Assembly: GCA_038087875.1 (NCBI GenBank)
Contig: CM075987.1
Location: forward strand, 16,928,001-16,992,000
Length of the DNA stretch: 64,000 nucleotides
Origin: Malacoraja senta
Taxonomy: Eukaryota
Direction of reading: 5' to 3'
The notes beneath the pieces were generated by a model. That model did no database searches and was not told the origin of the DNA. It saw only the letters and a program-made list of their open reading frames with translations. Positions 3,272 to 53,073 of this stretch are shown here, one piece after another (within the stretch, counting starts at the first letter, position 1; each line of letters begins with the position of its first letter). A program made the position numbers and the translations under genes.

Positions 3272-3849
3272 GAATTCCCATGCGCAGAAAACGACCTCCG
3301 ACTAAGTTTTACACTTACCTGCGGCTTTTTTAACTTACCGCTGGAGGAGCGATGCACCTCCCAGCCAGTCGCTGCGCCATGCGTCAGACGTAATGACGCG
3401 CATGCGGACTGGCGGGACTTCTTCACGGAATCACTCACGTGACTCCGAAGTAAAATCTCCTATGTGGGACCTTATCAAATGCTTTCTGAAAGTCCAGGTA
3501 CACTACATCCACTGGCTCTCCCTTGTCCATTTTCCGAGTTACATCCTCAAAAAATTCCAGAAGATTAGTCAAGCATGATTTCCCCTTCATAAATCCATGC
3601 TGACTCGGACCGATCCTGTTACTGCTATCCAAATGCGTCGCTATTTCATCTTTTATAATTGACTCCAGCATCTTCCCCACCACCAGGCTAATTGGTCAGT
3701 AATTTCCTGTTTTCTCTCTCCCGCCTTTCTTAAAAAGTGGGATAACATTAGCTATCCTCCAATCCACATTAGCTACCCTCCGATCCTGAATCTATAGAAC
3801 ATTGGAAAATGATCACCAATGCATCTACTATTTCTGGAGCCACCTCCTT

Positions 3850-6800
3850 TTGTGGAAGGTGCGACCTGTACAAAAAGGATGGGTTGCACTTGAACCTGAG
3901 GGGGACCAATATCCTGGCGGGGAGATTTGCAAAGGCTACTGGGGAGACTTTAAACTAGAACGGTTGGGGGGAGGGACTCAAATAGAGAAAGCTATTAGTC
4001 AGTATGTGAGGCAGGAGGCAGAGAAGGAAAGCACTCAGACCCAACATGTAGGGGGGAAAGAAGAAAACAATAATAAACAGAGAATAAGAGGTGGTGGGGT
4101 TCTTAAATGGGTGAGCAGAGAAACAGAGGAGTGTAAAATGCGGGCAGAAGCAATAGGTAGCAAGGTGAAAAGTAAAAGTGGCAGGCAGACAAATCCAGGA
4201 CAAAAATCAAAAAGGGCCACTTTTCAACATAATTGTAAAAGGGGTAAGAGCGTTGTAAAAACAAGCCTGAAGGCTTTGTGTCTCAATGCAAGGAGCATTC
4301 GTAATAAGGTGGATGAGTTGAATGTGCAGAATGCTATTAATGATTATGATATAGTTGGGATCACGGAGACATGGCTCCAGGGTGACCAAGGCTGGGAGCT
4401 GAACATCCAGGTATATTCAATATTCAGGAGGGATAGAGAGAAAGCAAAAGGAGGTGGGGTAGCGTTGCTGGTTAGAGAGGAGATTAACGCAGTGGAAAGG
4501 AAGGACATTAGCTTGGAGGATGTGGAATCGGTATGGGTAGAGCTGCGAAACACTAAGGGGCAGAAAACGCTGGTGGGTGTTGTGTACAGGCCACCTAACA
4601 GTAGTAGTGAAGTTGGGGATGGCATCAAACAGGAAATTAGAAATGCGTGCAACAAAGGCAAAACAGTTATAATAGGTGACTTCAATCTACATATAGATTG
4701 GGTGAATCAAATTGGCAGGGGTGCTGAAGAAGAGGATTTCTTGGAATGTATGCGGGATAGTTATCTAAACCAACATGTAGAGGAACCAACGAGAGAGCAG
4801 GCTATTCTAGACTGGGTATTGAGTAATGAGGAAGGGTTAGTTAGCAGTCTTGTTGTGCGTGCCCCCTTGGGCAAGAGTGACCATAATATGGTTGAGTTCT
4901 TCATTAGGATGGAGAGTGACATTGTTAATTCAGAAACAATGGTTCTGAACTTACAGAAAGGTAACTTTGAGGGTATGAGACGTGAATTGGCCAAGATTGA
5001 CTGGCAATTAGTTCTAAAAGGGTTGACGGTGGATATGCAATGGAAGGCATTTAAAGACTGCATGGATGAACTACAAAAATTGTTCTTCCCAGTTTGGGAA
5101 AAGAATAAATCAGGGAAGGTAGTGCATCCGTGGATAACAAGGGAAATCAGGGATAGTATCAAAGCAAAAGATGATGCGTACAAATTAGCCAGAAAAAGCA
5201 GCATACCAGAGGACTGGGAGAAATTCAGAGACCAGCAGAGGAGGACAAAGGGCTTAATTAGGAAAGGGAAAATAGATTATGAAAGAAAACTGGCAGGGAA
5301 CATAATAACTGACTGCAAAAGTTTTTATAGATATGTGAAGAGAAAGAGATTAGTTAAAACAAATGTAGGTCCCTTGCAGTCAGATACAGGTGAATTGATC
5401 ATGGGGAACAAGGATATGGCGGACCAATTGAATAACTACTTTGGTTCCGTCTTCACTAAGGAAGACATAAATTATCTGCCGGAAATAGCAGGGGACCGCG
5501 GGTCAAAAGAGATGGAGGAACTGAGTGAAATCCAGGTTAGTCGGGAAGTAGTGTTGGGTAAATTGAATGGATTAAAGGCTGATAAATCACCAGGGCCAGA
5601 TAGGCTGCATCCCAGAGTACTTAAGGAAGTAGCTCCAGAAATAGTGGATGCATTAGTGATAATTTTTCAAAACTCTTTAGATTCTGGAGTAGTTCCTGAG
5701 GATTGGAGGGTAGCAAACGTAACCCCAATTTTTAAGAAGGGAGGGAGAGAGAAAACGGGGAATTACTGACCAGTTAGTCTAACATCGGTAGTGGGGAAAC
5801 TGCTAGAGTCAGTTATTAAAGATGGGATAGCAGCACATTTGGAAAGTCGTGAAATCATTGGACAAAGTCAGCATGGATTTACAAAAGGTAAATCATGTCT
5901 GACGAATCTTATAGAATTTTTCGAGGATGTAACTAGTAGAGTGGATAGGGGAGAACCAGTGGATGTGTTGTATCTGGACTTTCAGAAGGCTTTCGACAAG
6001 GTCCCACATAAGAGATTAATATACAAACTTAAAGCACACGGTATTGGGGGTTCAGTATTGATGTGGATAGAGAACTGGCTGGCAAACAGGAAGCAAAGAG
6101 TAGGAGTAAATGGGTCCTTTTCACAATGGCCGGCAGTGACTAGTGGGGTACCACAAGGCTCAGTGCTGGGACCCCAGCTATTTACAATTTATATTAATGA
6201 ACTGGATGTGGGAATTGAAGGCAACATCTCCAAGTTTGCGGATGACACTAAGCTGGGGGGCAGTGTTAGCTGTGAGGAGGATGCTAGGGGACTGCAAGGT
6301 GACTTAGATAGGCTGGGTGAGTGGGCAAATGTTTGGCAGGTGCAGTATAATGTGGATAAATGTGAGGTTATCCACTTTGGTGGCAAAAACAGGAAAGCAG
6401 ACTATTATCTAAATGGTGGCCGATTAGGAAAAGGGGAGATGCAGCGAGACCTGGGTGTCATGGTACACCAGTCATTGAAAGTAGGCAGGTACACAAAAAT
6501 GCTGGAGAAACTCAGCGGATGCAGCAGCATCTATGGAGCGAAGGAAATAGGTAACGTTTCGGGCCGAAACCCTTCTAACCCTTGAAAGTAGGCATGCAGG
6601 TGCAGCAGGCAGTGAAGAAAGCGAATGGTATGTTAGCTTTCATACCAAAAGGATTTGAGTATAGGAGCTGGGAGGTTCTACTGCAGTTGTACAGGGTCTT
6701 GGTGAGACCACACCTGGAGTATTGCGTACAGTTTTGGTCTCCAAATCTGAGGAAGGACATTATAGCCATAGCGGGAGTGCAGAGAAGGTTCACCAGACTG

Positions 6801-13100: not shown

Positions 13101-14456
13101 TTAAGACCGAGATGAGGAAAAACTTTTTCACACAGAGAGTGGTGAATCTCTGGAACTCTCTGCCACAGAGGGTAGTTGAGGCCAGTTCATTGGCTATATT
13201 TAAGAGGGAATTAGATGTGGCCCTTGTGGCTAAAGGGATCAGGGGGTATGGAGAGAAGGCAGGTACGGGATACTGAGTTGAATGATCAGCCATGATCGTA
13301 TTGAATGGCGGTGCAGGCTCGAAGGGGCGAATGGCCTACTCCTGCACCTATTTTCTATGTATCTATGTATCTATATCGATTCCACATCCTCCAAGCTAAT
13401 GTCCTTCATTTCTATTGCGTTAATCTGCTCTCTAACCAGCAACACTACCCCACCTCCTTTCCCTTTCTGTCTATCCCTCCTGAATATTGAATATCCCTGG
13501 ATGTTCAGCTCCCAGCCTTGGTTACTCTGGAGCCATGTCTCCGTGATCCCAACTATATCATAGTCATTAATAGCTATCTGCACATTCAACTCATCCACCT
13601 TATTACGAATGCTCCTTGCATTGAGACACAAAACCTTCAGGCTTGTTTTTACAACACTCTTACCCCTTATACAATTATGTAGAAAAGTGGCCCTTTTTGA
13701 TTTTTGCCCTGGATTTGTCTGCCTGCCACTTTTACTTTTCACCTTGCTACCTATTGCTTCTACCCTCATTTTACACCCCTCTGTCTCTACGCTCACACAT
13801 TTAAGAAACCCTTTCCCTTTAACTCCATCCTCAACTATCCCATTCGACACCCCACCCCCCTTATTCAGTTTAAAACCACCCGTGTAGCAGTGGCAAACCT
13901 GCCTGCCAGAATGCTGGTCCCCCACCTGTTAAGATGCAATCCGTCCCTTTTGTACAGTTCCCTTTTACTCCAAAACAGATCCCAGTGATCTAAGAATCTA
14001 AATCCCTGCCCCGTGCACCAGTTCCTCAGCCACACATTCAGGTCCCGTATCTCCCTGTTCCTGCTCTCGCCAGCACGAGGAACTGGAAGCAAACCGGAGA
14101 TAACAACCCTGGAGGTCCTGCTTTTCAGCATTTTTCCGAGCTCTCTAAACTCACGCTGCAGAATATTCATACCCTTCTTTCCGACATCGTTTGTGCCGAC
14201 ATGCACTACCACTTCCGGCTATTCACCTTCGCCCTTGAGGATTTTCTGCACTCTGTCCGTGACATCCTGGATCCTGGCACCAGGAAGGCAGCACACCATC
14301 CTCGAATCCCGTCTGTTGCCGCAGAAACCCCTGTCCGTACCTCTCACAGTGGAGTCTCCCACTACAATGGCGTTGCCTGACTTTGGCCTTTTTGGTTTTG
14401 GCTCAACAGCCCTATTCGCATCGCAAGCCAGTCTGCCGCTCAGTGTTAAAACGTCT
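10110..14456 (-). mobile_element. CR1 LINE 'B' (ORF1 esterase part + ORF2 + tail), frameshifted and interrupted
   Basis: ORF1 SGNH-esterase motifs 'GDS', 'HVGTND' and 'DGLHLN'. ORF2 EN/RT motifs present. (tttctatg)n tail at ~10110-10130. Confidence 0.95.
12750..13372 (+). mobile_element. 5'-truncated CR1 inserted antisense into CR1-B (left arm only)
   Basis: RT C-terminus and tail. 4-bp TSD atat (12746-12749, 13373-13376). Empty site gaatcgatatgggtag at ~17331-17346. Confidence 0.9.
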
Positions 14457-25989: not shown

Positions 25990-27350
25990 GGATCCCACTC
26001 CCCTGTCACTCTAGTTTAACTCATCCCATGTAGCACTAGTGAACCTCCCTGCAAGGATATTGATTCCCCTTCAGTTCTGGTGCAACCCATTCCTCTTATA
26101 CAGGTCACCTCTGCCCCAGAAGACATCCCAATGGTCCAAAAATTTGAGGCCCTGCCTCTTGCACCAACTCCTCACCCATGCTTTGCTCTGTCCTATCCTC
26201 TTCCTACTAGAATTGGCAGCAGGAGCAATCTAGAGATGACTATCCTTGATCCTGCTTTTTAACCATTTATATATCTTCCTGTATTCACTCTGCCAGCTCT
26301 CAGCACTTTTCACACCTATGTAATTTGTGCAAATGCACAATGACACTGGCTCCTCACCCTTCCCCCTTGAGAATGTTCTATGGCAACTTGGAGACTTGCT
26401 GGATCCTGCACCAGGGACACAACACAACGCCATGTTTGCTGCCATAGAATCTCCCGCCTGGCACCCTAAATAATGGGTCTCCTATCACTATCACTCTGCC
26501 TGGCCATGCCTCAGAATCAGGCCCGACGCCACAGGCCTGACTGCTGCCATCACCGGACAGGGCATTCCCTCCACCAGTATCCAAATAGGTAGGGCTGTTG
26601 TCAAGAGGAATGGTCACAGGGGATTCCTGCACACGCTGCCTATTTCCATTCCTGGTGGTTGCCCATCTACACCCTCCCTGCAACAAGAGCATGACCACCG
26701 TTATTGGCAGAGCACTGCCTGACGGCACCAGTAACCCAGGTTCAATCCTAACTGGATGCTTCGCATGTTCCCCCTGAAGTCAGGTGGGCTTTCCTTCAGG
26801 TGCTTTGGTTTCCTCCCACGTCCCAGGTTAATTGGCCTCTGTAAATGGCCCCTAATATGTAGGGAGTGGATGAGCAAGGGGATAACATAGAACAAGTGTA
26901 AATAGGTGATTGATGGTCGGTGTGGACTCGGTAGGCTAAAGGCCTGTTTCCATGCTGTCTCCTTAAACTAAACTAAAATCTCACAGGACCTCTTAGCTAT
27001 GACACTCTCACGTCGTTGGCTGAGCCTGAGGTCAGCCCGTAGCAGTTCTAGTTCCCTAATGCCGTCTGTAAGGAGCGGCAGCCAGATGCACTTCCCACCG
27101 TAGTGCACAAGGACACGGACTGTCTTCCAAACCCCACATCCTGCAGGAGGAGCAGTGCACCATTCTACCTGCCATCTCTACTGCACTGACCACTAATACA
27201 CTGAGAAAAATTATAGACACAAAAACAACCTGTCGTCACCCTCTGCTCAACCACCTCGCCAAAGCCTCAACACTTACCTTCAAACGCAGCAGTTCACCTC
27301 TACGCACAGCCACTCCCAAAGCAGCTGTTCCCAAGTCTCAACACAGCTAC
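25990..27350 (-). mobile_element. Degraded CR1 5'UTR + ORF1 with a SINE insertion (~26700-26980)
   Basis: Remnants 'VIGDPL' and 'CCVPGA', Cys-rich N-terminus, degenerate gagttaaactag at the ORF1 end. Confidence 0.65.
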
Positions 27351-47734: not shown

Positions 47735-48680
47735 CTTGAAGTTCGGGAGCGGCAGAAGTGAGTTTGGTGATTGGCTGAAAGGTAAGCTCTTGGGAGTTTC
47801 TTTGTGTTTCCTTTCGGTAGTGGTTAGCTTAAAACCGGGCGCGACCAGGTAAGAGGAGCACATACCGTCAAGTTCGGAAGCGGCAGAAGTGAGTTCGATG
47901 ATTGGCTGAGGAATTTGATTTGCTAATTGGTTAAGTGGCGAATTGGGCAATTTATCAGCCAATATAAGCAAGGTTTCCTGTCGGGGAGCGGCCTTGTTGA
48001 GGGAAGTGTCTTGTGAGGAAAGTGCGAGTCTTTGGCTCGAGAGTCTTCGGCGAGGAGGCTGAGGAGAGGAGACTACGCCAAAACTTGGAGAGGACGAGAC
48101 GTGGGGAAGCCATGACGGTTAAGATGATTCAGTGTGATGCTTGCAGGATGCGGGAGGTCAGGGAAACTGATGGAGCCTCTGGCTGCTACAACTGTGGTAA
48201 GTGTGTCCAGCTTCAGCTCCTGAAGGACTGTGTTGGGGCACTGGAGAAGCAGCTTGATGACCTCAGGATCACCCAGGGAAACAAGAGTTTCTTGGACAGG
48301 ACCTGCAGTGAGGTTGTCACACCAAGGATACAGGAAGAGCGAAGGTGGGTGACTGTGAGAAATGGGAGTAACCGTGGTGCAGGAGACCCCAGTGGCTGTG
48401 CCTAATGAAAACAGGCACACCCTTTTGGGAGCTGTCGTGGCAGACGACGCTTCCAGACTGAGCGGCAGACAGGTCGGTGGCTCCAATCCTAGCGATGAGA
48501 CTCGACTGGCGTGACCGACGTCGGGCAGAGCTATAGTGGTGGGTGACTCCATTGTCCGAGATGCGGACAGGAGATTCTCTGGCGGCAGGCGAGACTCGAG
48601 GATGGTCTGTTGCCTCCCAGGTGCAAGGGTTCAAGATATCACAAACCGATTTCAGAACATCCTCGAGAGGGAAGATGAAC
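47735..48680 (+). mobile_element. CR1 5' end: 5'UTR + ORF1 (CxxC…CxxC zinc finger/leucine zipper, start of esterase), degraded
   Basis: 'MTVKMIQCDACRM…CYNCGKCVQLQLLKDCVGALEKQLDDLR' and 'VVGDSIVR'. Confidence 0.8.
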
Positions 48681-49248
48681 AGCCGTTTTTTCCAGCATCT
48701 ACAGTTCCTTCTTAAACACAGGGAATTATAGACCAGTAAGCCTGACATTGGTGGTGGGGAAGATGCTGGAGTCAATCATAAAATATCAAATAGCGGCACA
48801 TTTGGATAGCAGTAGCAGGATCGGTCCGAGTCAGCATGGATTTACGAAGGGGAAATCATGCTTGACTAATCTTCTGGAATTTTTTGAAGATGTAACTAGG
48901 GAAATGGACAAGGGAGAGCCAGTGGATGTAGTGTGCCTGGACTTTCAAAAAGCATTTGATAAGGTCCCACATAGGAGATTAGTGAGAAAAATTAGGGCAC
49001 ATGGTATTGGGGGTAGAGTGCTGACATGGATAGAAAATTGGTTGGCAGACAGGAAACAAAGAGTAGGGTTTAACGGGTCCCTTTCAGAATGGCAGGCAGT
49101 GACTAGTGGGGTACCGCAAGGCTCGGTGCTGGGACTGCAGCTATTTACAATGTACATCAATGATTTAGATGAAGGGATTACAAGTAACATTAGCAAATTT
49201 GCAGATGACACAAAGCTGGGTGGCAGTGTGAACTGTTAAGAGGATGCT

Positions 49249-50089
49249 CCGCATTGATGAGCTGGAGACCCAACTTCATACGCTGCGGTGCATCAGGGAG
49301 GGGGAGTATTACCTGGATGTTTTGTGCCAGGGGATGGTCACACCGACCAGTTTAACTAATTCAGTAGTTAGTGAGCAGGGAAAGGAAGGTGTGGCCATAA
49401 GCGAGGCAGGTAGGGGGAACCAGGAGGAGATGCGGCAGGAGCCACAGCCCTTGTCCCTGACGAGCATGACCGAGGCTCTTACTCAATGCGAGGACGGGAT
49501 CAAGGGCTGTGGGAGGGATGAGCAACCTGGCTGCAGCACCGTGGATCAGGGGGCCATTCAAGAGGGGGGAGTTAGAAGAAATGCCGTTGTGATAGGGGAT
49601 AGTATTATTCGGGGGGTAGATAAGGTTCTCTGCGGCCAGCAGAACATGTCCCGAAGGCTGTGTTGCCTACCCGGTGCTAGGGTTAAGGATATCTCTGCGA
49701 TGCTGGAGAGAAATTTGCAGAGTGAGGGGGAGGATCCAGTGGTCGTGGTCCATGTGGGGACCAATGACATAGGAAGGACGAGGAAGGAGGATCTGCTGAA
49801 CGAGTTTGAGCAGTTAGGGAATAAATTAAAAAGCAGAACCTCGAGGGTACTGATCTCCGGATTGCTACCTGAGCCACGGGCCAAATCGGCGAGGGTACAA
49901 AAAATTAAAAAGCTGAATGCGTGGCTCAAAGACTGGTGTGGGAAAAATGGGTTTGGTTTCTTGGGCCACTGGCACCAGTACTGGGACAGGGGGGATCTGT
50001 TCTGTAAGGACGGACTTCACCTGAACGGTGCTGGGACTGGGGTCCTGGCAAATCATATAACTAGGGCAGTAGAGAGGTCTTTAAACTAA
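49249..50089 (+). CDS. CR1 ORF1 (partial; coiled coil + SGNH esterase domain)
   Basis: 'VIGDSIIR', 'CLPGA', 'HVGTNDI' and 'DGLHLN'. No internal stops. Confidence 0.88.
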
Positions 50090-50178
50090 GTAGCGGGGGG
50101 GAGGTATCAAGGGGGGTAATAACGGCAGGGGTAGAGGAAATAGAGCAGGGTATCAGTGGGGAAACGGAAAATCAAAAT

Positions 50179-53073
50179 GTGACAGGAGGATCCAGAATGT
50201 GTGAAGATAAAGCTCTAGATGTAAAAGGGGCAAAAACAGAAAGGAAGGGTAGTAAAAATCATCTGAAAGTACTGTATCTAAATGCACGGAGTATTCGAAA
50301 TAAGATAAATGAATTAACGGTGCAATTAAGTACATATAGTTATGATATCGTGGCCATTACGGAGACATGGCTGCAAGGGGATCAGGATTGGGAGTTAAAT
50401 ATAGAGGGGTACTCGACAATTAGAAAAGATAGACAGGAAAGAAAGGGAGGAGGGGTGGCCCTTTTAATAAGGGAGGGAATAACGGCAATAGAGAGGAAGG
50501 ATATTGCGTTGAAGGATCAGGATAGTGAAACAGCTTGGATACAGATAGAGAATAACAAGGGGAAAAAAACACTAGTGGGTGTAATTTATAGACCTCCAAA
50601 TAGCTGTGACGCTGTTAGTCAGAACATAAATCTGCAAATAGTTGACGCATGTAAAAAGGGAACTGCTGTAATCATGGGGGACTTCAATTTTCATATTAAT
50701 TGGGCAAACCAAACTGGGCAGGGTAGACTAGAGGAAGAGTTTATAGAATGTATTAGAGACGGGTTCCTAGAACAGTATGTCACAGAACCGACAAGGGGGG
50801 AGGCAATCTTGGATCTGGTCCTGTGTAATGAAGCAGGATTAATTAAAAATGTCATAGTTAGGGACTCGTTGGGAACAAGTGACCACAATATGGTCGAATT
50901 CCATATTCAAATAGAAGGGGAGCAGGTTGAAACTCAGGCTAGGGTACTTAGTCTAAATAAGGGGGATTATGAAGGTATGAGGACTGAGCTGATCAAAGTT
51001 GACTGGGATAGCAGACTCAAGAATAAGACGGTACATGAGCAGTGGTGTACGTTTAAGGATCTACTGTATAACCTTCAAGAAAAATTTATTCCTATGAAGA
51101 AAAAAAGGGGTAAGGGAAAGAACAGTCAGCCATGGCTCAGTAAAACTATAAAGGATAGTATTCGGCTGAAGGCAAGGGCATATAAGGTAGCTAGAGATAG
51201 TGGGAGGGTAGAGGATTGGGAAGCATTTAAAGGTCAGCAAAAAATAACTAAGAGATTAATTAAGACGGGGAAAATAGACTATGAAAGGAATTTAGCGAAC
51301 AACATAAAAACTAATAGTAAGAGTTTTTATAGCTATATAAAAAGAAAAAGGGTGGCTAAGGTGAACGTTGGTCCATTGGAGGGTGAGACTGGAGAGTTGT
51401 TGGTGGGGAACATGGAAATGGCAAAGGCATTAAACGAGTATTTTGTATCAGTCTTCACCATAGAAGACACAAAAAATATTCCAACGCTGGATAAACAGGG
51501 GGCGGTAGGAATGGAGGAGCTAAATACTATTAAGATCACCAAGGAGGTGGTATTAGGGAAATTAATGAGACTGAAGGAGGATAAATCCCCTGGGCCTGAT
51601 GGATTACATCCAAGGGTCTTGAGGGAGATAGCGGTGGGGATTGTGGATGCATTGGTGATAATTTTCCAAAACTCCCTGGAGGCAGGAACGGTCCCAGTGG
51701 ATTGGAAAATGGCCAATGTAACACCTATATTTAAAAAAGGAAGTAAACAGAAGGCGGGTAACTATAGACCGGTTAGTCTAACATCGGTGGTGGGTAAAAT
51801 GTTAGAGACAATTATTAAAGAAACACTAACGGGGCACTTGGATAAACATGACTTCATCGGACAGAACCAGCATGGTTTTGTGAAGGGGAAGTCCTGTTTA
51901 ACGAATCTGCTCGAATTCTTTGAGGAAGTAACAACCCGGGTGGATAAAGGGGAACCGGTGGATGTGGTATACTTGGACTTCCAAAAGGCTTTTGACAAGG
52001 TGCCACATAAGAGACTATTGCTAAAAATAAAAAATTATGGGATTGGGGGTAATATATTAGCATGGGTAGAGGATTGGCTAACAAATAGGAAGCAGAGAGT
52101 GGGGATAAATGGTTCATACTCGGGATGGCAACCGGTAACTAGCGGGGTTCCGCAAGGGTCGGTGCTGGGACCCCAGTTGTTCACAATTTATATAAATGAT
52201 TTGGAGGAGGGAACCAAGTGTAATATATCAAAATTTGCGGACGATACAAAAATGGGAGGAAAAGTAGGGGATGAGGAGGATAGGAAGAGTCTGCAAAAGG
52301 ATATAGATAAGCTAGGTGAGTGGGCAACAACTTGGCAGATGAAATTTAATACTAATAAATGTGAAGTCATTCACTTTGGGAAAAAAAATGATAGGGCAAG
52401 TTATTTTCTAAATGAGGTGGAGCTGCGTTGTAATGCAATGCAAAGGGATCTAGGGGTAGTAGTACATGAATCACTAAAAGTTAGTATGCAGGTGCAGCAA
52501 GCAATCAGGAAGGCCAATGGAGTTTTGGCCTTTATTGCTAGGGGGATTGAGTATAAAAACACGGAGGTCTTGCTGCAGCTGTACACAGTATTAGTGAGAC
52601 CACATTTGGAATACTGTGTACAGTTCTGGGGTCCATACTTAAGAAAGGATGTACTGGCCCTGGAGGCAGTGCAGCGAAGGTTTACAAGATTAATTCCTGC
52701 AATGAGGGGATTGACATATGAGGAAAGGTTAAGTAGGCTGGAACTCTACTCTTTGGAGTTTAGAAGAATGAGAGGCGATCTCATTGAAACATATAAGATC
52801 GTGAGGGGCCTTGATCGGGTGGATGCACCGAGGATGTTCCCAATGATCGGGGAAACTAGAACTAGGGGACATAGTTGTAGAATAAGAGGGGGCTCTTTTA
52901 AAACTGAGATGAGGAACAACTTCTTCACCCAGAGGGTGGTTAATTTATGGAATTCACTGCCCCAGGGAGCAGTGGAAGCAGAAACATTAAATATATTTAA
53001 GTCTAAAATAGATGTTTTTTTAGCTGCCAAGGGGATAAGGGGCTACGGGGAGAGGGCAGGGATATGGACCTAG
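50179..53073 (+). CDS. CR1 ORF2 APE endonuclease / reverse transcriptase, 964 aa, uninterrupted (frame open from 50065)
   Basis: 'YLNARS', 'ITETWL', 'YRPP', 'GDFN', 'SDH', 'NYRPVSLTS', 'DFQKAFD', '[10 protein letters not shown]' and 'FADD'. Confidence 0.96.
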   Translation: MTGGSRMCEDKALDVKGAKTERKGSKNHLKVLYLNARSIRNKINELTVQLSTYSYDIVAITETWLQGDQDWELNIEGYSTIRKDRQERKGGGVALLIREGITAIERKDIALKDQDSETAWIQIENNKGKKTLVGVIYRPPNSCDAVSQNINLQIVDACKKGTAVIMGDFNFHINWANQTGQGRLEEEFIECIRDGFLEQYVTEPTRGEAILDLVLCNEAGLIKNVIVRDSLGTSDHNMVEFHIQIEGEQVETQARVLSLNKGDYEGMRTELIKVDWDSRLKNKTVHEQWCTFKDLLYNLQEKFIPMKKKRGKGKNSQPWLSKTIKDSIRLKARAYKVARDSGRVEDWEAFKGQQKITKRLIKTGKIDYERNLANNIKTNSKSFYSYIKRKRVAKVNVGPLEGETGELLVGNMEMAKALNEYFVSVFTIEDTKNIPTLDKQGAVGMEELNTIKITKEVVLGKLMRLKEDKSPGPDGLHPRVLREIAVGIVDALVIIFQNSLEAGTVPVDWKMANVTPIFKKGSKQKAGNYRPVSLTSVVGKMLETIIKETLTGHLDKHDFIGQNQHGFVKGKSCLTNLLEFFEEVTTRVDKGEPVDVVYLDFQKAFDKVPHKRLLLKIKNYGIGGNILAWVEDWLTNRKQRVGINGSYSGWQPVTSGVPQGSVLGPQLFTIYINDLEEGTKCNISKFADDTKMGGKVGDEEDRKSLQKDIDKLGEWATTWQMKFNTNKCEVIHFGKKNDRASYFLNEVELRCNAMQRDLGVVVHESLKVSMQVQQAIRKANGVLAFIARGIEYKNTEVLLQLYTVLVRPHLEYCVQFWGPYLRKDVLALEAVQRRFTRLIPAMRGLTYEERLSRLELYSLEFRRMRGDLIETYKIVRGLDRVDAPRMFPMIGETRTRGHSCRIRGGSFKTEMRNNFFTQRVVNLWNSLPQGAVEAETLNIFKSKIDVFLAAKGIRGYGERAGIWT

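Follow-up and report, generated by a model that had tools for sequence, protein, structure and literature searches.

A candidate programmed −1 ribosomal frameshift signal at the ORF1/ORF2 junction of esterase-type CR1 retrotransposons

The 64,000-nucleotide (nt) stretch of Malacoraja senta contig CM075987.1 analysed here (the window; all coordinates are positions in that stretch) carries, with its ORFs reaching from 49246 to 53073, a copy of a CR1 long interspersed nuclear element (LINE), in which open reading frame 1 (ORF1) encodes an esterase and ORF2 an endonuclease and a reverse transcriptase. Comparison with diverged families of the same genome and with metagenome loci suggests that the ORF1/ORF2 junction of esterase-type CR1 LINEs is probably a programmed −1 ribosomal frameshift (PRF) signal. 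The gag-pol-style fusion of the two proteins (ORF1p-ORF2p) put forward in the original prediction is supported by this comparative evidence, from which we infer slippage itself, its efficiency and its stimulator.

At the locus, bases 50078-50089 read TCT TTA AAC TAA and form the 3' end of ORF1, with TTTAAAC at 50080-50086. ORF1 (49232..50089 on the plus strand, 285-286 codons from stop to stop) matched the Pfam domain PF13472 Lipase_GDSL_2 (E 5.3e-14), and ORF2 (50065..53073 on the plus strand, 1002-1003 codons from stop to stop) matched Exo_endo_phos (E 1.1e-11) and RVT_1 (E 4.6e-33). Since ORF2 lies in the −1 frame relative to ORF1, in which it is open across the heptamer, this placement phases TTTAAAC as U_UUA_AAC in the ORF1 frame. 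Runs of seven (G7, 50095-50101), six (G6, 50111-50116) and four G residues (G4, 50128-50131) follow 8, 24, and 41 nt 3' of the heptamer, and the earliest ATG in the ORF2 frame of this family is at 50197-50199, 37 codons past the slip site. The sequence and the ORF coordinates thus bore out what had been read at the junction, namely the ORF1 end with its heptamer, an ORF2 exactly in the −1 frame and open from 50065, G runs from 8 nt downstream, and an in-frame AUG at 50197. The transframe peptide, which had been written with a Lys (ERSLN/KLSSGGE), needed correction: because tandem slippage would decode AAC as Asn and then read CUA, the predicted junction is ...ERSLN-LSSGGE..., with no Lys. The features of the element are as follows.

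49246..50089, plus strand: 5'-truncated ORF1 with a coiled-coil remnant and a GDSL/SGNH esterase, ending Ser-Leu-Asn-stop (PF13472; sister-copy alignment)
50065..53073, plus strand: ORF2 frame with apurinic/apyrimidinic (AP) endonuclease and reverse transcriptase (Pfam matches)
50080..50086, plus strand: slippery heptamer U_UUA_AAC in the ORF1 phase (sequence; 30/30 family loci)
50087..50089, plus strand: ORF1 stop codon TAA, immediately 3' of the heptamer (sequence)
50095..50131, plus strand: G-rich tract of G7, G6 and G4 (sequence; element-wide G4Hunter peak nearby)
50086..50196, plus strand: linker in the −1 frame from the slip site to the first ORF2-frame ATG (0 stops in the −1 frame, 6 in the ORF1 frame, 2 in the third frame)
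50197..50199, plus strand: first ORF2-frame ATG, a possible restart codon in the window family only (no counterpart in subfamilies B1 and B3)

Counting in-phase X_XXY_YYZ heptamers gave 3 among the 286 codons of ORF1 and 5 among the 1003 of ORF2 (about 0.6% per codon, or about 1 per 150 codons). A heptamer within the 8-codon ORF1/ORF2 overlap is therefore a chance event of about 5%, and the single locus is only suggestive. The genome (1.94 Gb) contained at least 40 copies that were about 100% identical over an 801-nt query (40/40 scored; 1397 first-look candidates). The 29 sister loci were 98.7-99.7% identical to the window copy, and TTTAAAC TAA was kept in 30/30 loci of the family, the window's own included. 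Because such near-identical young copies are uninformative on selection, diverged lineages were sought, and the sister copies were used only for the youth of the family and for the truncation of the window copy. That copy had been described as intact, and it proved to be 5'-truncated at 49246, without the ORF1 start and the 5' untranslated region. Sister-copy similarity begins at 49246 in 23 of the 29 loci, and full-length sisters have an ORF1 frame of 338 codons, in which the Met is codon 21 and precedes a Cys-rich motif and a coiled coil.

An esterase ORF1 together with an AP endonuclease/reverse transcriptase ORF2 is the domain set of an esterase-type (type IV ORF1) CR1-group LINE. The label CR1, as opposed to L2, comes from the original prediction, and the domain content is consistent with it. 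The same architecture has been described for CR1 subgroup 7 and L2 subgroup 9 (PMC4120745; this and the other papers cited here were available in part, and statements about them refer to those parts).

A DNA similarity search within the window did not find a second junction copy, and a protein-level search found such copies. Together with this search, genome searches with PF13472 (10,369 candidates), two diverged ORF1 pieces and two database proteins yielded the junctions of six families, whose ORF1 esterase regions were 47-67% identical (83% between B subfamilies). Their junctions are given below with the spacer between the heptamer and the first G run and the length of that run.

Family W (the window family): TC T_TTA_AAC TAA, spacer 8 nt, G7
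Family A: GT T_TTA_AAC TGA, spacer 7 nt, G5-6
Families B1, B2 and B3: AC T_TTA_AAC TAG, spacer 10 nt, G6
Family D: GA T_TTA_AAC TAA, spacer 10 nt, G5
Family G: GG T_TTA_AAC TAA, spacer 8 nt, G7-9
Family C, one decayed copy: GA G_TTA_AAC TAG, spacer 10 nt, G4

The copies found by the protein search of the window are the following.

3949..3955, plus strand: heptamer of a family B copy, ACT TTA AAC TAG, 10 nt, G6
13868..13874, minus strand: heptamer of a family A copy, GTT TTA AAC TGA, 7 nt, G6
26014..26020, minus strand: heptamer of a decayed and more distant family C copy, G_TTA_AAC TAG, 10 nt, G4

Sixteen junctions were compared: those of W, A, B1, B2, B3, D, G (two copies) and C from the window's own genome, and those of the metagenome loci L097, L101, L102, L109, L113, L120 and L130. 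All 16 showed an in-phase X_XXA_AAC heptamer, an adjacent stop, any 4-8 nt, and then a run of G4-G9 located 7-11 nt past the heptamer. The heptamer was UUUAAAC in 13, the near-canonical GUUAAAC in 2 and GGGAAAC in 1. The stop codon followed the heptamer directly in 16/16; its identity varied among TAA, TAG and TGA, whereas its position was constant. In every lineage with a readable junction, ORF2 was in the −1 frame and open through the site.

Synonymous sites were examined by codon alignment of the final 144 codons of ORF1 from six family representatives (47-83% ORF1 identity). Among 46 columns with an invariant residue and a degenerate codon, the same codon was used in only 6, including the TTA and the AAC at the end of ORF1; the codon varied in each of the 11 other columns with an invariant Leu. 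Immediately 5' of the terminal Leu codon stands a codon for Ser, Val, Thr, Thr, Asp or Gly, whose third base is always T (TCT, GTT, ACT, GAT, GGT). Of the 54 columns with at least three residues, 7 had an invariant third base, and this base was T only in the pre-Leu column. Selection on U_UUA_AAC predicts exactly this pattern, whereas selection for a Leu-Asn C-terminus does not. This test led to the rejection of chance and of a constraint acting purely on the Leu-Asn residues. The original prediction had named, as the outcome that would speak against it, a conservation of the Leu-Asn-stop residues but not of the heptamer and frame; the check across families came out in favour of frameshifting.

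The heptamer was also scored copy by copy. It lay directly 5' of the ORF1 stop in 28/30 of loci L031-L060, with an ORF1 frame 17 codons longer in the other 2. Among L061-L080 it was kept in 13/20; two or three of the other 7 had point changes in the motif, and the rest had lost the junction to deletions or insertions. It was in frame in 12/16 of L081-L096, where the motif stood behind an upstream frame break in 3 and the junction was outside the locus in 1. Motif losses are expected in dead copies. As a separate observation on the B copies, subfamily B2 (L067, L050, window 3840-4300) combines a B-type ORF1 end with an A/D-type N-terminal module of ORF2 (...CKMR.EAIGSKVKSKSGRQ...), and B1 and B3 (L033-L060) have a different, shorter linker; the B2 mosaic suggests recombination within the linker.

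The search was extended to other organisms at the protein level. A phmmer search against 1.84 billion representatives gave 2718 matches with E up to 1e-3, and C-termini were tallied in the best 150 of these. Among the 71 complete C-termini in the best 150, 51 ended in Asn (Leu-Asn 40, Gly-Asn 7, Lys-Asn 1, Glu-Asn 1, Ser-Asn 2) and 20 ended otherwise. The named Leu-Asn members belong to an eel, two turtles, a lizard and a frog. A codon ending in T (NNT) could encode the residue preceding Leu in 39 of the 40 Leu-Asn proteins, against a background non-NNT share of 14.8% (P 0.013), and Gln precedes Gly-Asn in 6 of the 7 Gly-Asn proteins. The Asn endings would fit UUUAAAC, GGGAAAC and AAAAAAC, although protein data are no proof of codons. 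When lineages ending in Gly-Asn or Lys-Asn were sought in the window's own genome (queries P0063 and P0132), only Leu-Asn families were found, at 29-41% identity.

Metagenome contigs were scanned with a narrower alignment (A2), the broad 24-protein alignment (A1) being too diverse, and 34 loci were obtained. The loci cited here have esterases 27-39% identical to that of the window, and their junctions come from five independent sources besides the window's genome. The results showed that the slip site was kept in these deep relatives.

L109, L113 and L120: GC T_TTA_AAC TAG, spacer 10 nt, G5
L110: GC T_TTA_AAC TAG, contig ends after the stop (outside the 16)
L102 and L130: same motif as L109, behind decayed ORF1s
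L101: TC G_TTA_AAC TAG, spacer 7 nt, G5
L097, Gly-Asn type: GC G_GGA_AAC TAG, spacer 11 nt, G5, contig ends 29 nt later

The endonuclease-bearing ORF2 of the metagenome loci was in the −1 frame and open from 13-16 nt 5' of the ORF1 stop, and the −1 ORF continued without a stop for 1199 nt (L109) and 1157 nt (L101). The G_GGA_AAC of the Gly-Asn relative L097 is another canonical slippery heptamer, and the GUUAAAC of L101 and of window copy C is the functional slip site of equine arteritis virus. A scan of viral_contigs with the same A2 query found nothing.

Stop codons and start codons around the junction were counted. From the heptamer to the first endonuclease motif, intact representatives had 0 stops in the −1 frame and 3-12 in each of the other two frames; up to the first Met, or otherwise the endonuclease motif, there were 0 in the −1 frame, 1-6 in the ORF1 frame and 2-7 in the third frame. 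The shuffle p for the stop-free −1 stretch was 0.004-0.47 per lineage and 1.8e-5 combined; the relatedness of B1, B2 and B3 makes the combined value look stronger than it is. The −1 frame opens 6-186 nt 5' of the heptamer, and the overlap contained no ATG in 10/11 representatives. In B1 and B3, the 56 codons between the heptamer and the endonuclease motif included no Met codon in 30/30 copies and were stop-free in 29/30 (copies with a locatable endonuclease motif; seven further anchored copies without an exact motif match were left out). The first ATG of these copies is about 797 nt past the ORF1 stop, inside the endonuclease domain, and G_L039 likewise reaches the endonuclease motif without a Met. 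Since 30/30 B1/B3 copies lack an AUG in this interval, reinitiation at an AUG is not general. The original prediction had kept reinitiation as an option; this stands for some families, in which an AUG is present, and falls as a general route.

RNA evidence came from raw RNA-seq reads of a related organism (one oligo-dT and one single-cell library), which covered 49246-51000 continuously. The reads across the junction showed no joints and no indel at the heptamer, and the sole indel in 1755 nt was a deletion of 3 nt at 50189-50192, in the linker, which keeps the frame. Both strands were represented, and some of the reads could stem from read-through transcripts or DNA carry-over. The RNA libraries thus contain a close relative of the element whose junction is unspliced and unedited, so any fusion must be translational. 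None of the listed holders of the stretch is on record as RNA. As a side observation, none of the differences listed between the window and the reads or contigs of the related organism falls within 49946-50163 (218 nt at the junction); fixed differences elsewhere occur about every 60 nt, and 17 weaker ones lie outside the list, so this gap may not hold.

Taken as a −1 PRF site, the junction has an in-phase heptamer, a −1 ORF that is open and start-less (the window family has an ATG), and conservation beyond coding. Under the proposed mechanism, most ribosomes would decode UUA (Leu) and AAC (Asn), reach the adjacent stop and release the esterase ORF1p. A minority would slip one base back, so that the tRNAs for Leu and Asn pair anew with UUU and AAA, and would then read CUA, the poorly conserved linker, the endonuclease and the reverse transcriptase. 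The product would be an ORF1p-ORF2p fusion made as a fixed minority, following the gag-pol logic of retroviruses. The adjacent stop, if slowly decoded, may act as a 'hungry' A-site codon that gives the two tRNAs time to slip, and the G tract at the mRNA entry channel may add a block, either as a G-quadruplex in some lineages or as a factor-binding site.

Several observations weigh against frameshifting, the first being the lack of a conserved downstream structure. The minimum free energy (MFE) of the 60-120 nt downstream was no better than that of shuffles in most of 8 representatives, and RNAalifold on 14 lineages gave 0 conserved pairs, pseudoknots and long-range pairings being outside this search. 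A Watson-Crick stem as the stimulator was rejected on these MFE shuffles and the RNAalifold result. The only conserved columns in the RNAalifold alignment were the heptamer, the stop and the first G run, and where a canonical site has a stem-loop or pseudoknot 5-9 nt downstream, a conserved G run lies at that distance instead. Since no conserved base-paired structure was found, the stop and the G tract are the presumed stimulators. The 120 nt past the site are 75-80% purine. G runs of at least 5 number 16 in about 4 kb, so that one starting in a 5-nt window is an event of about 2% per lineage. The G4Hunter maximum was at least 1.2 in 14/15 junctions, and that of the whole window element (2.2) is at 50092. 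With G-quadruplex energies, ViennaRNA predicted a quadruplex in 5/8 representatives (B1, B2, D_L076, G_L062, G_L039) and not in W, A or D_L063. A G-quadruplex stimulator, which the original prediction had brought up, is thus not consistently predicted and lacks support in the window's own family.

The other observations concern start codons and sampling. An ORF2-frame AUG is present 22-59 codons past the site in W, A, B2, D, L101 and L109, where restart is possible. In family D (L063-L065, L073, L075-L077, L080), the heptamer is followed by TAATG, in which the −1 ATG overlaps the ORF1 stop as UAAUG, so restart is possible there as well. A TGA closes the −1 frame of the family C copy shortly past the site. 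The families of one genome share ancestry, so these samples are not independent, and four of the metagenome junctions come from one sample. The protein-level NNT test reached only P 0.013, with one exception, P0002 (...EELN). Finally, the support is wholly comparative.

Of the alternatives, the one that survives best, though we regard it as unlikely, is a repositioning coupled to termination, in which ORF1p would be released and the ribosome, with deacylated Asn (and Leu) tRNA, would slide back one base onto AAA (UUU), resume elongation in the −1 frame and make a separate Met-less ORF2p. This would account for a stop that is adjacent in 16/16 although its identity varies, which classical tandem slippage does not need; it requires no AUG, in agreement with B1 and B3 and with a −1 frame open from the site, and it fits the lack of a conserved 3' structure. 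Post-termination ribosomes can reportedly migrate to nearby cognate codons, as Skabkin et al. are said to have found in 2013. However, the first heptamer base matters only for two-tRNA re-pairing, and this base is kept as T at the wobble site of a variable codon and changes together with the Leu-to-Gly switch, giving G_GGA. Post-termination repositioning is, to our knowledge, known from reconstituted systems and not as a conserved expression strategy. Two-tRNA slippage is thus favoured by conservation at the first heptamer position, and the sequence data as a whole fit both readings.

Less probable still is that ORF2 is translated by reinitiation, or by leaky or internal initiation, at an AUG or near-cognate codon in its own frame, with the heptamer irrelevant to it. 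The AUG at 50197 and those 22-59 codons past the site in A, B2, L101 and L109 are compatible with such a route, and the UAAUG of family D is a SART1-type stop-start overlap; reinitiation has been described for SART1 and LINE-1 (PMC5972666, PMC3894237). A restart AUG at or near the stop was found only in family D, and none lies near the stop in W, A, B, G, L101 or L109, so family D could use frameshifting or a SART1-type restart. Reinitiation leaves unexplained both the conservation of the heptamer at synonymous sites, together with its swap to other slippery heptamers, and the open −1 frame 5' of the AUGs, and B1/B3 (30/30) and G_L039 have no AUG before the endonuclease motif. It is very improbable that the TTTAAAC-stop-G-run block is an RNA or DNA cis-element (for packaging, ORF1p binding, termination or mRNA-stability control) whose slipperiness is coincidental: a protein-binding site would suit a G run conserved without a consistent G-quadruplex or helix, but the sequence is not fixed, TTTAAAC, GTTAAAC and GGGAAAC all (nearly) fit X_XXY_YYZ in the ORF1 phase, and this reading would explain neither how ORF2 is framed relative to ORF1 nor why the −1 frame is open without a start.

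Frameshifting at this junction can be compared with known systems. U_UUA_AAC sites operate at the pro-pol junction of human T-cell leukemia virus and bovine leukemia virus and at coronavirus ORF1a/1b. The CR1 junction shares with retroviral and coronaviral −1 PRF the identical heptamer and phase, a polymerase as a minority C-terminal extension and a −1 ORF without its own start. Unlike these, CR1 is a LINE without long terminal repeats (non-LTR), no conserved pseudoknot or stem-loop is found, the stop is always adjacent, and a G run occupies the place of the structure. In luteovirus and dianthovirus −1 PRF (barley yellow dwarf virus, BYDV; red clover necrotic mosaic virus, RCNMV), the ORF1 stop follows the shifty heptamer and there is an adjacent stem-loop, with long-distance pairing in BYDV. 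The zero-frame stop immediately 3' of the heptamer is common to these viruses and CR1, whereas nothing comparable to their stem-loop was predicted in CR1, long-range partners lying outside the search. The G_UUA_AAC site of equine arteritis virus has a pseudoknot; GUUAAAC recurs in L101 and copy C, whereas the LINE site has no predicted pseudoknot (none was searched for).

Gag-pol frameshifting is established for LTR retrotransposons (Atkins et al. 2016, PMC5009743), and unconventional termination/reinitiation in LINE-1 and UAAUG coupling in SART1 have been described (PMC5972666, PMC3708506, PMC3894237). Like LINE-1 and SART1, the CR1 elements have a bicistronic non-LTR RNA and would have a low level of ORF2 translation by ribosomes coming from ORF1, and family D shares the UAAUG; unlike them, CR1 ORF2 overlaps ORF1 at −1 across a slippery heptamer that is conserved, and a restart AUG is missing from some subfamilies. 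G-quadruplexes stimulate −1 frameshifting in engineered reporters (Yu et al., PMC3919603). The CR1 sites resemble these in having G-rich RNA just 3' of a slippery site and differ in that the context is natural, a four-tract quadruplex is predicted in only 5/8 representatives, and conservation is confined to the first G run.

Some insect LINEs have long been noted to have overlapping −1 frames, and the idea is not new for LINEs generally; what appears to be new is the conserved signal of three parts in the CR1s of vertebrates. ORF2 translation in bicistronic LINEs is an acknowledged open question (PMC3894237, PMC3708506), and the mechanisms named for non-LTR elements are reinitiation (LINE-1, SART1) and 2A skipping (PMC5972666, PMC3894237, PMC3708506). 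A recoding review covers LTR retrotransposons, PEG10-type genes and HeT-A gag, with nothing on CR1 in the part covered (PMC5009743). Within the available parts of a review of non-LTR protein biogenesis (PMC3894237), a survey of 448 Jockey-superfamily ORF1s (PMC4120745) and a 2026 survey of the CR1 group (PMC13343379), the word 'frameshift' is absent. The parts covered of the open literature, including PMC2734521 and PMC3905857, do not report a −1 frameshift to CR1 ORF2, although an earlier remark on overlapping frames in the original CR1 literature is possible.

CR1-group elements have been described as the dominant retrotransposons of most vertebrates (PMC13343379). If frameshifting holds, it would provide a concrete, testable mechanism for LINE ORF2 translation, extend gag-pol-type recoding from LTR elements to LINEs, and represent natural frameshifting without a base-paired stimulator. 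It would also predict an esterase-endonuclease-reverse transcriptase fusion protein, with a bearing on cis-preference and ribonucleoprotein assembly, and annotation should then not call ORF2 of these elements from the first AUG.

A different junction was seen in the metagenome loci L099, L100, L103, L104, L114 and L129. In these esterase-ORF1 LINEs, whose ORF1 tails read ...LSDNI... or ...LARN..., ORF2 lies in the same frame past a single TGA, which is always followed by C. The codons open past the TGA were 397/397 in L099, 75/75 in L100, 397/397 in L103, 293/388 in L104, 122/128 in L114 and 319/388 in L129, and in L103 and L104 no ATG precedes the endonuclease motif. This in-frame TGA-C junction looks like stop-codon readthrough, the other retroviral gag-pol strategy. 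In L104 and L114, whose ORF1 ends His-Pro-Asn, an in-phase C_CCA_AAC directly precedes the TGA; as the −1 frame stays open for only 14 nt, this heptamer is probably not used for shifting.

A broader proposal, which we offer tentatively as a possibility, is that all esterase-bearing CR1-group LINEs express the reverse transcriptase in retroviral fashion, by recoding that extends ORF1p. A novel kind of eukaryotic −1 signal that needs no structure (heptamer, obligatory stop, G tract) would serve the CR1 branch, and in-frame UGA-C readthrough a sister branch, and the signal would predate the split of cartilaginous fish, ray-finned fish and tetrapods.

Other loci showed further arrangements. A third kind of junction occurs in L106, where ORF2 is +1 relative to the esterase ORF, with a 47-nt overlap and no ATG before the endonuclease motif. 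In L124 and L125, a GDSL-like ORF ends AAC GTA AAA AAT TGA, in which A_AAA_AAT precedes the stop in phase; the −1 frame stays open for only 35 nt, no endonuclease lies downstream, and these ORFs are probably unrelated to LINEs. In the window itself, the truncated copy adjoins other CR1 pieces at 48001-49245, of which 48001-48405 is an N-terminal fragment of a CR1 ORF1 with the Cys-rich motif and coiled coil, and 48679-49239 is a reverse-transcriptase fragment with 71% DNA identity to 51757-52259 of the main copy.

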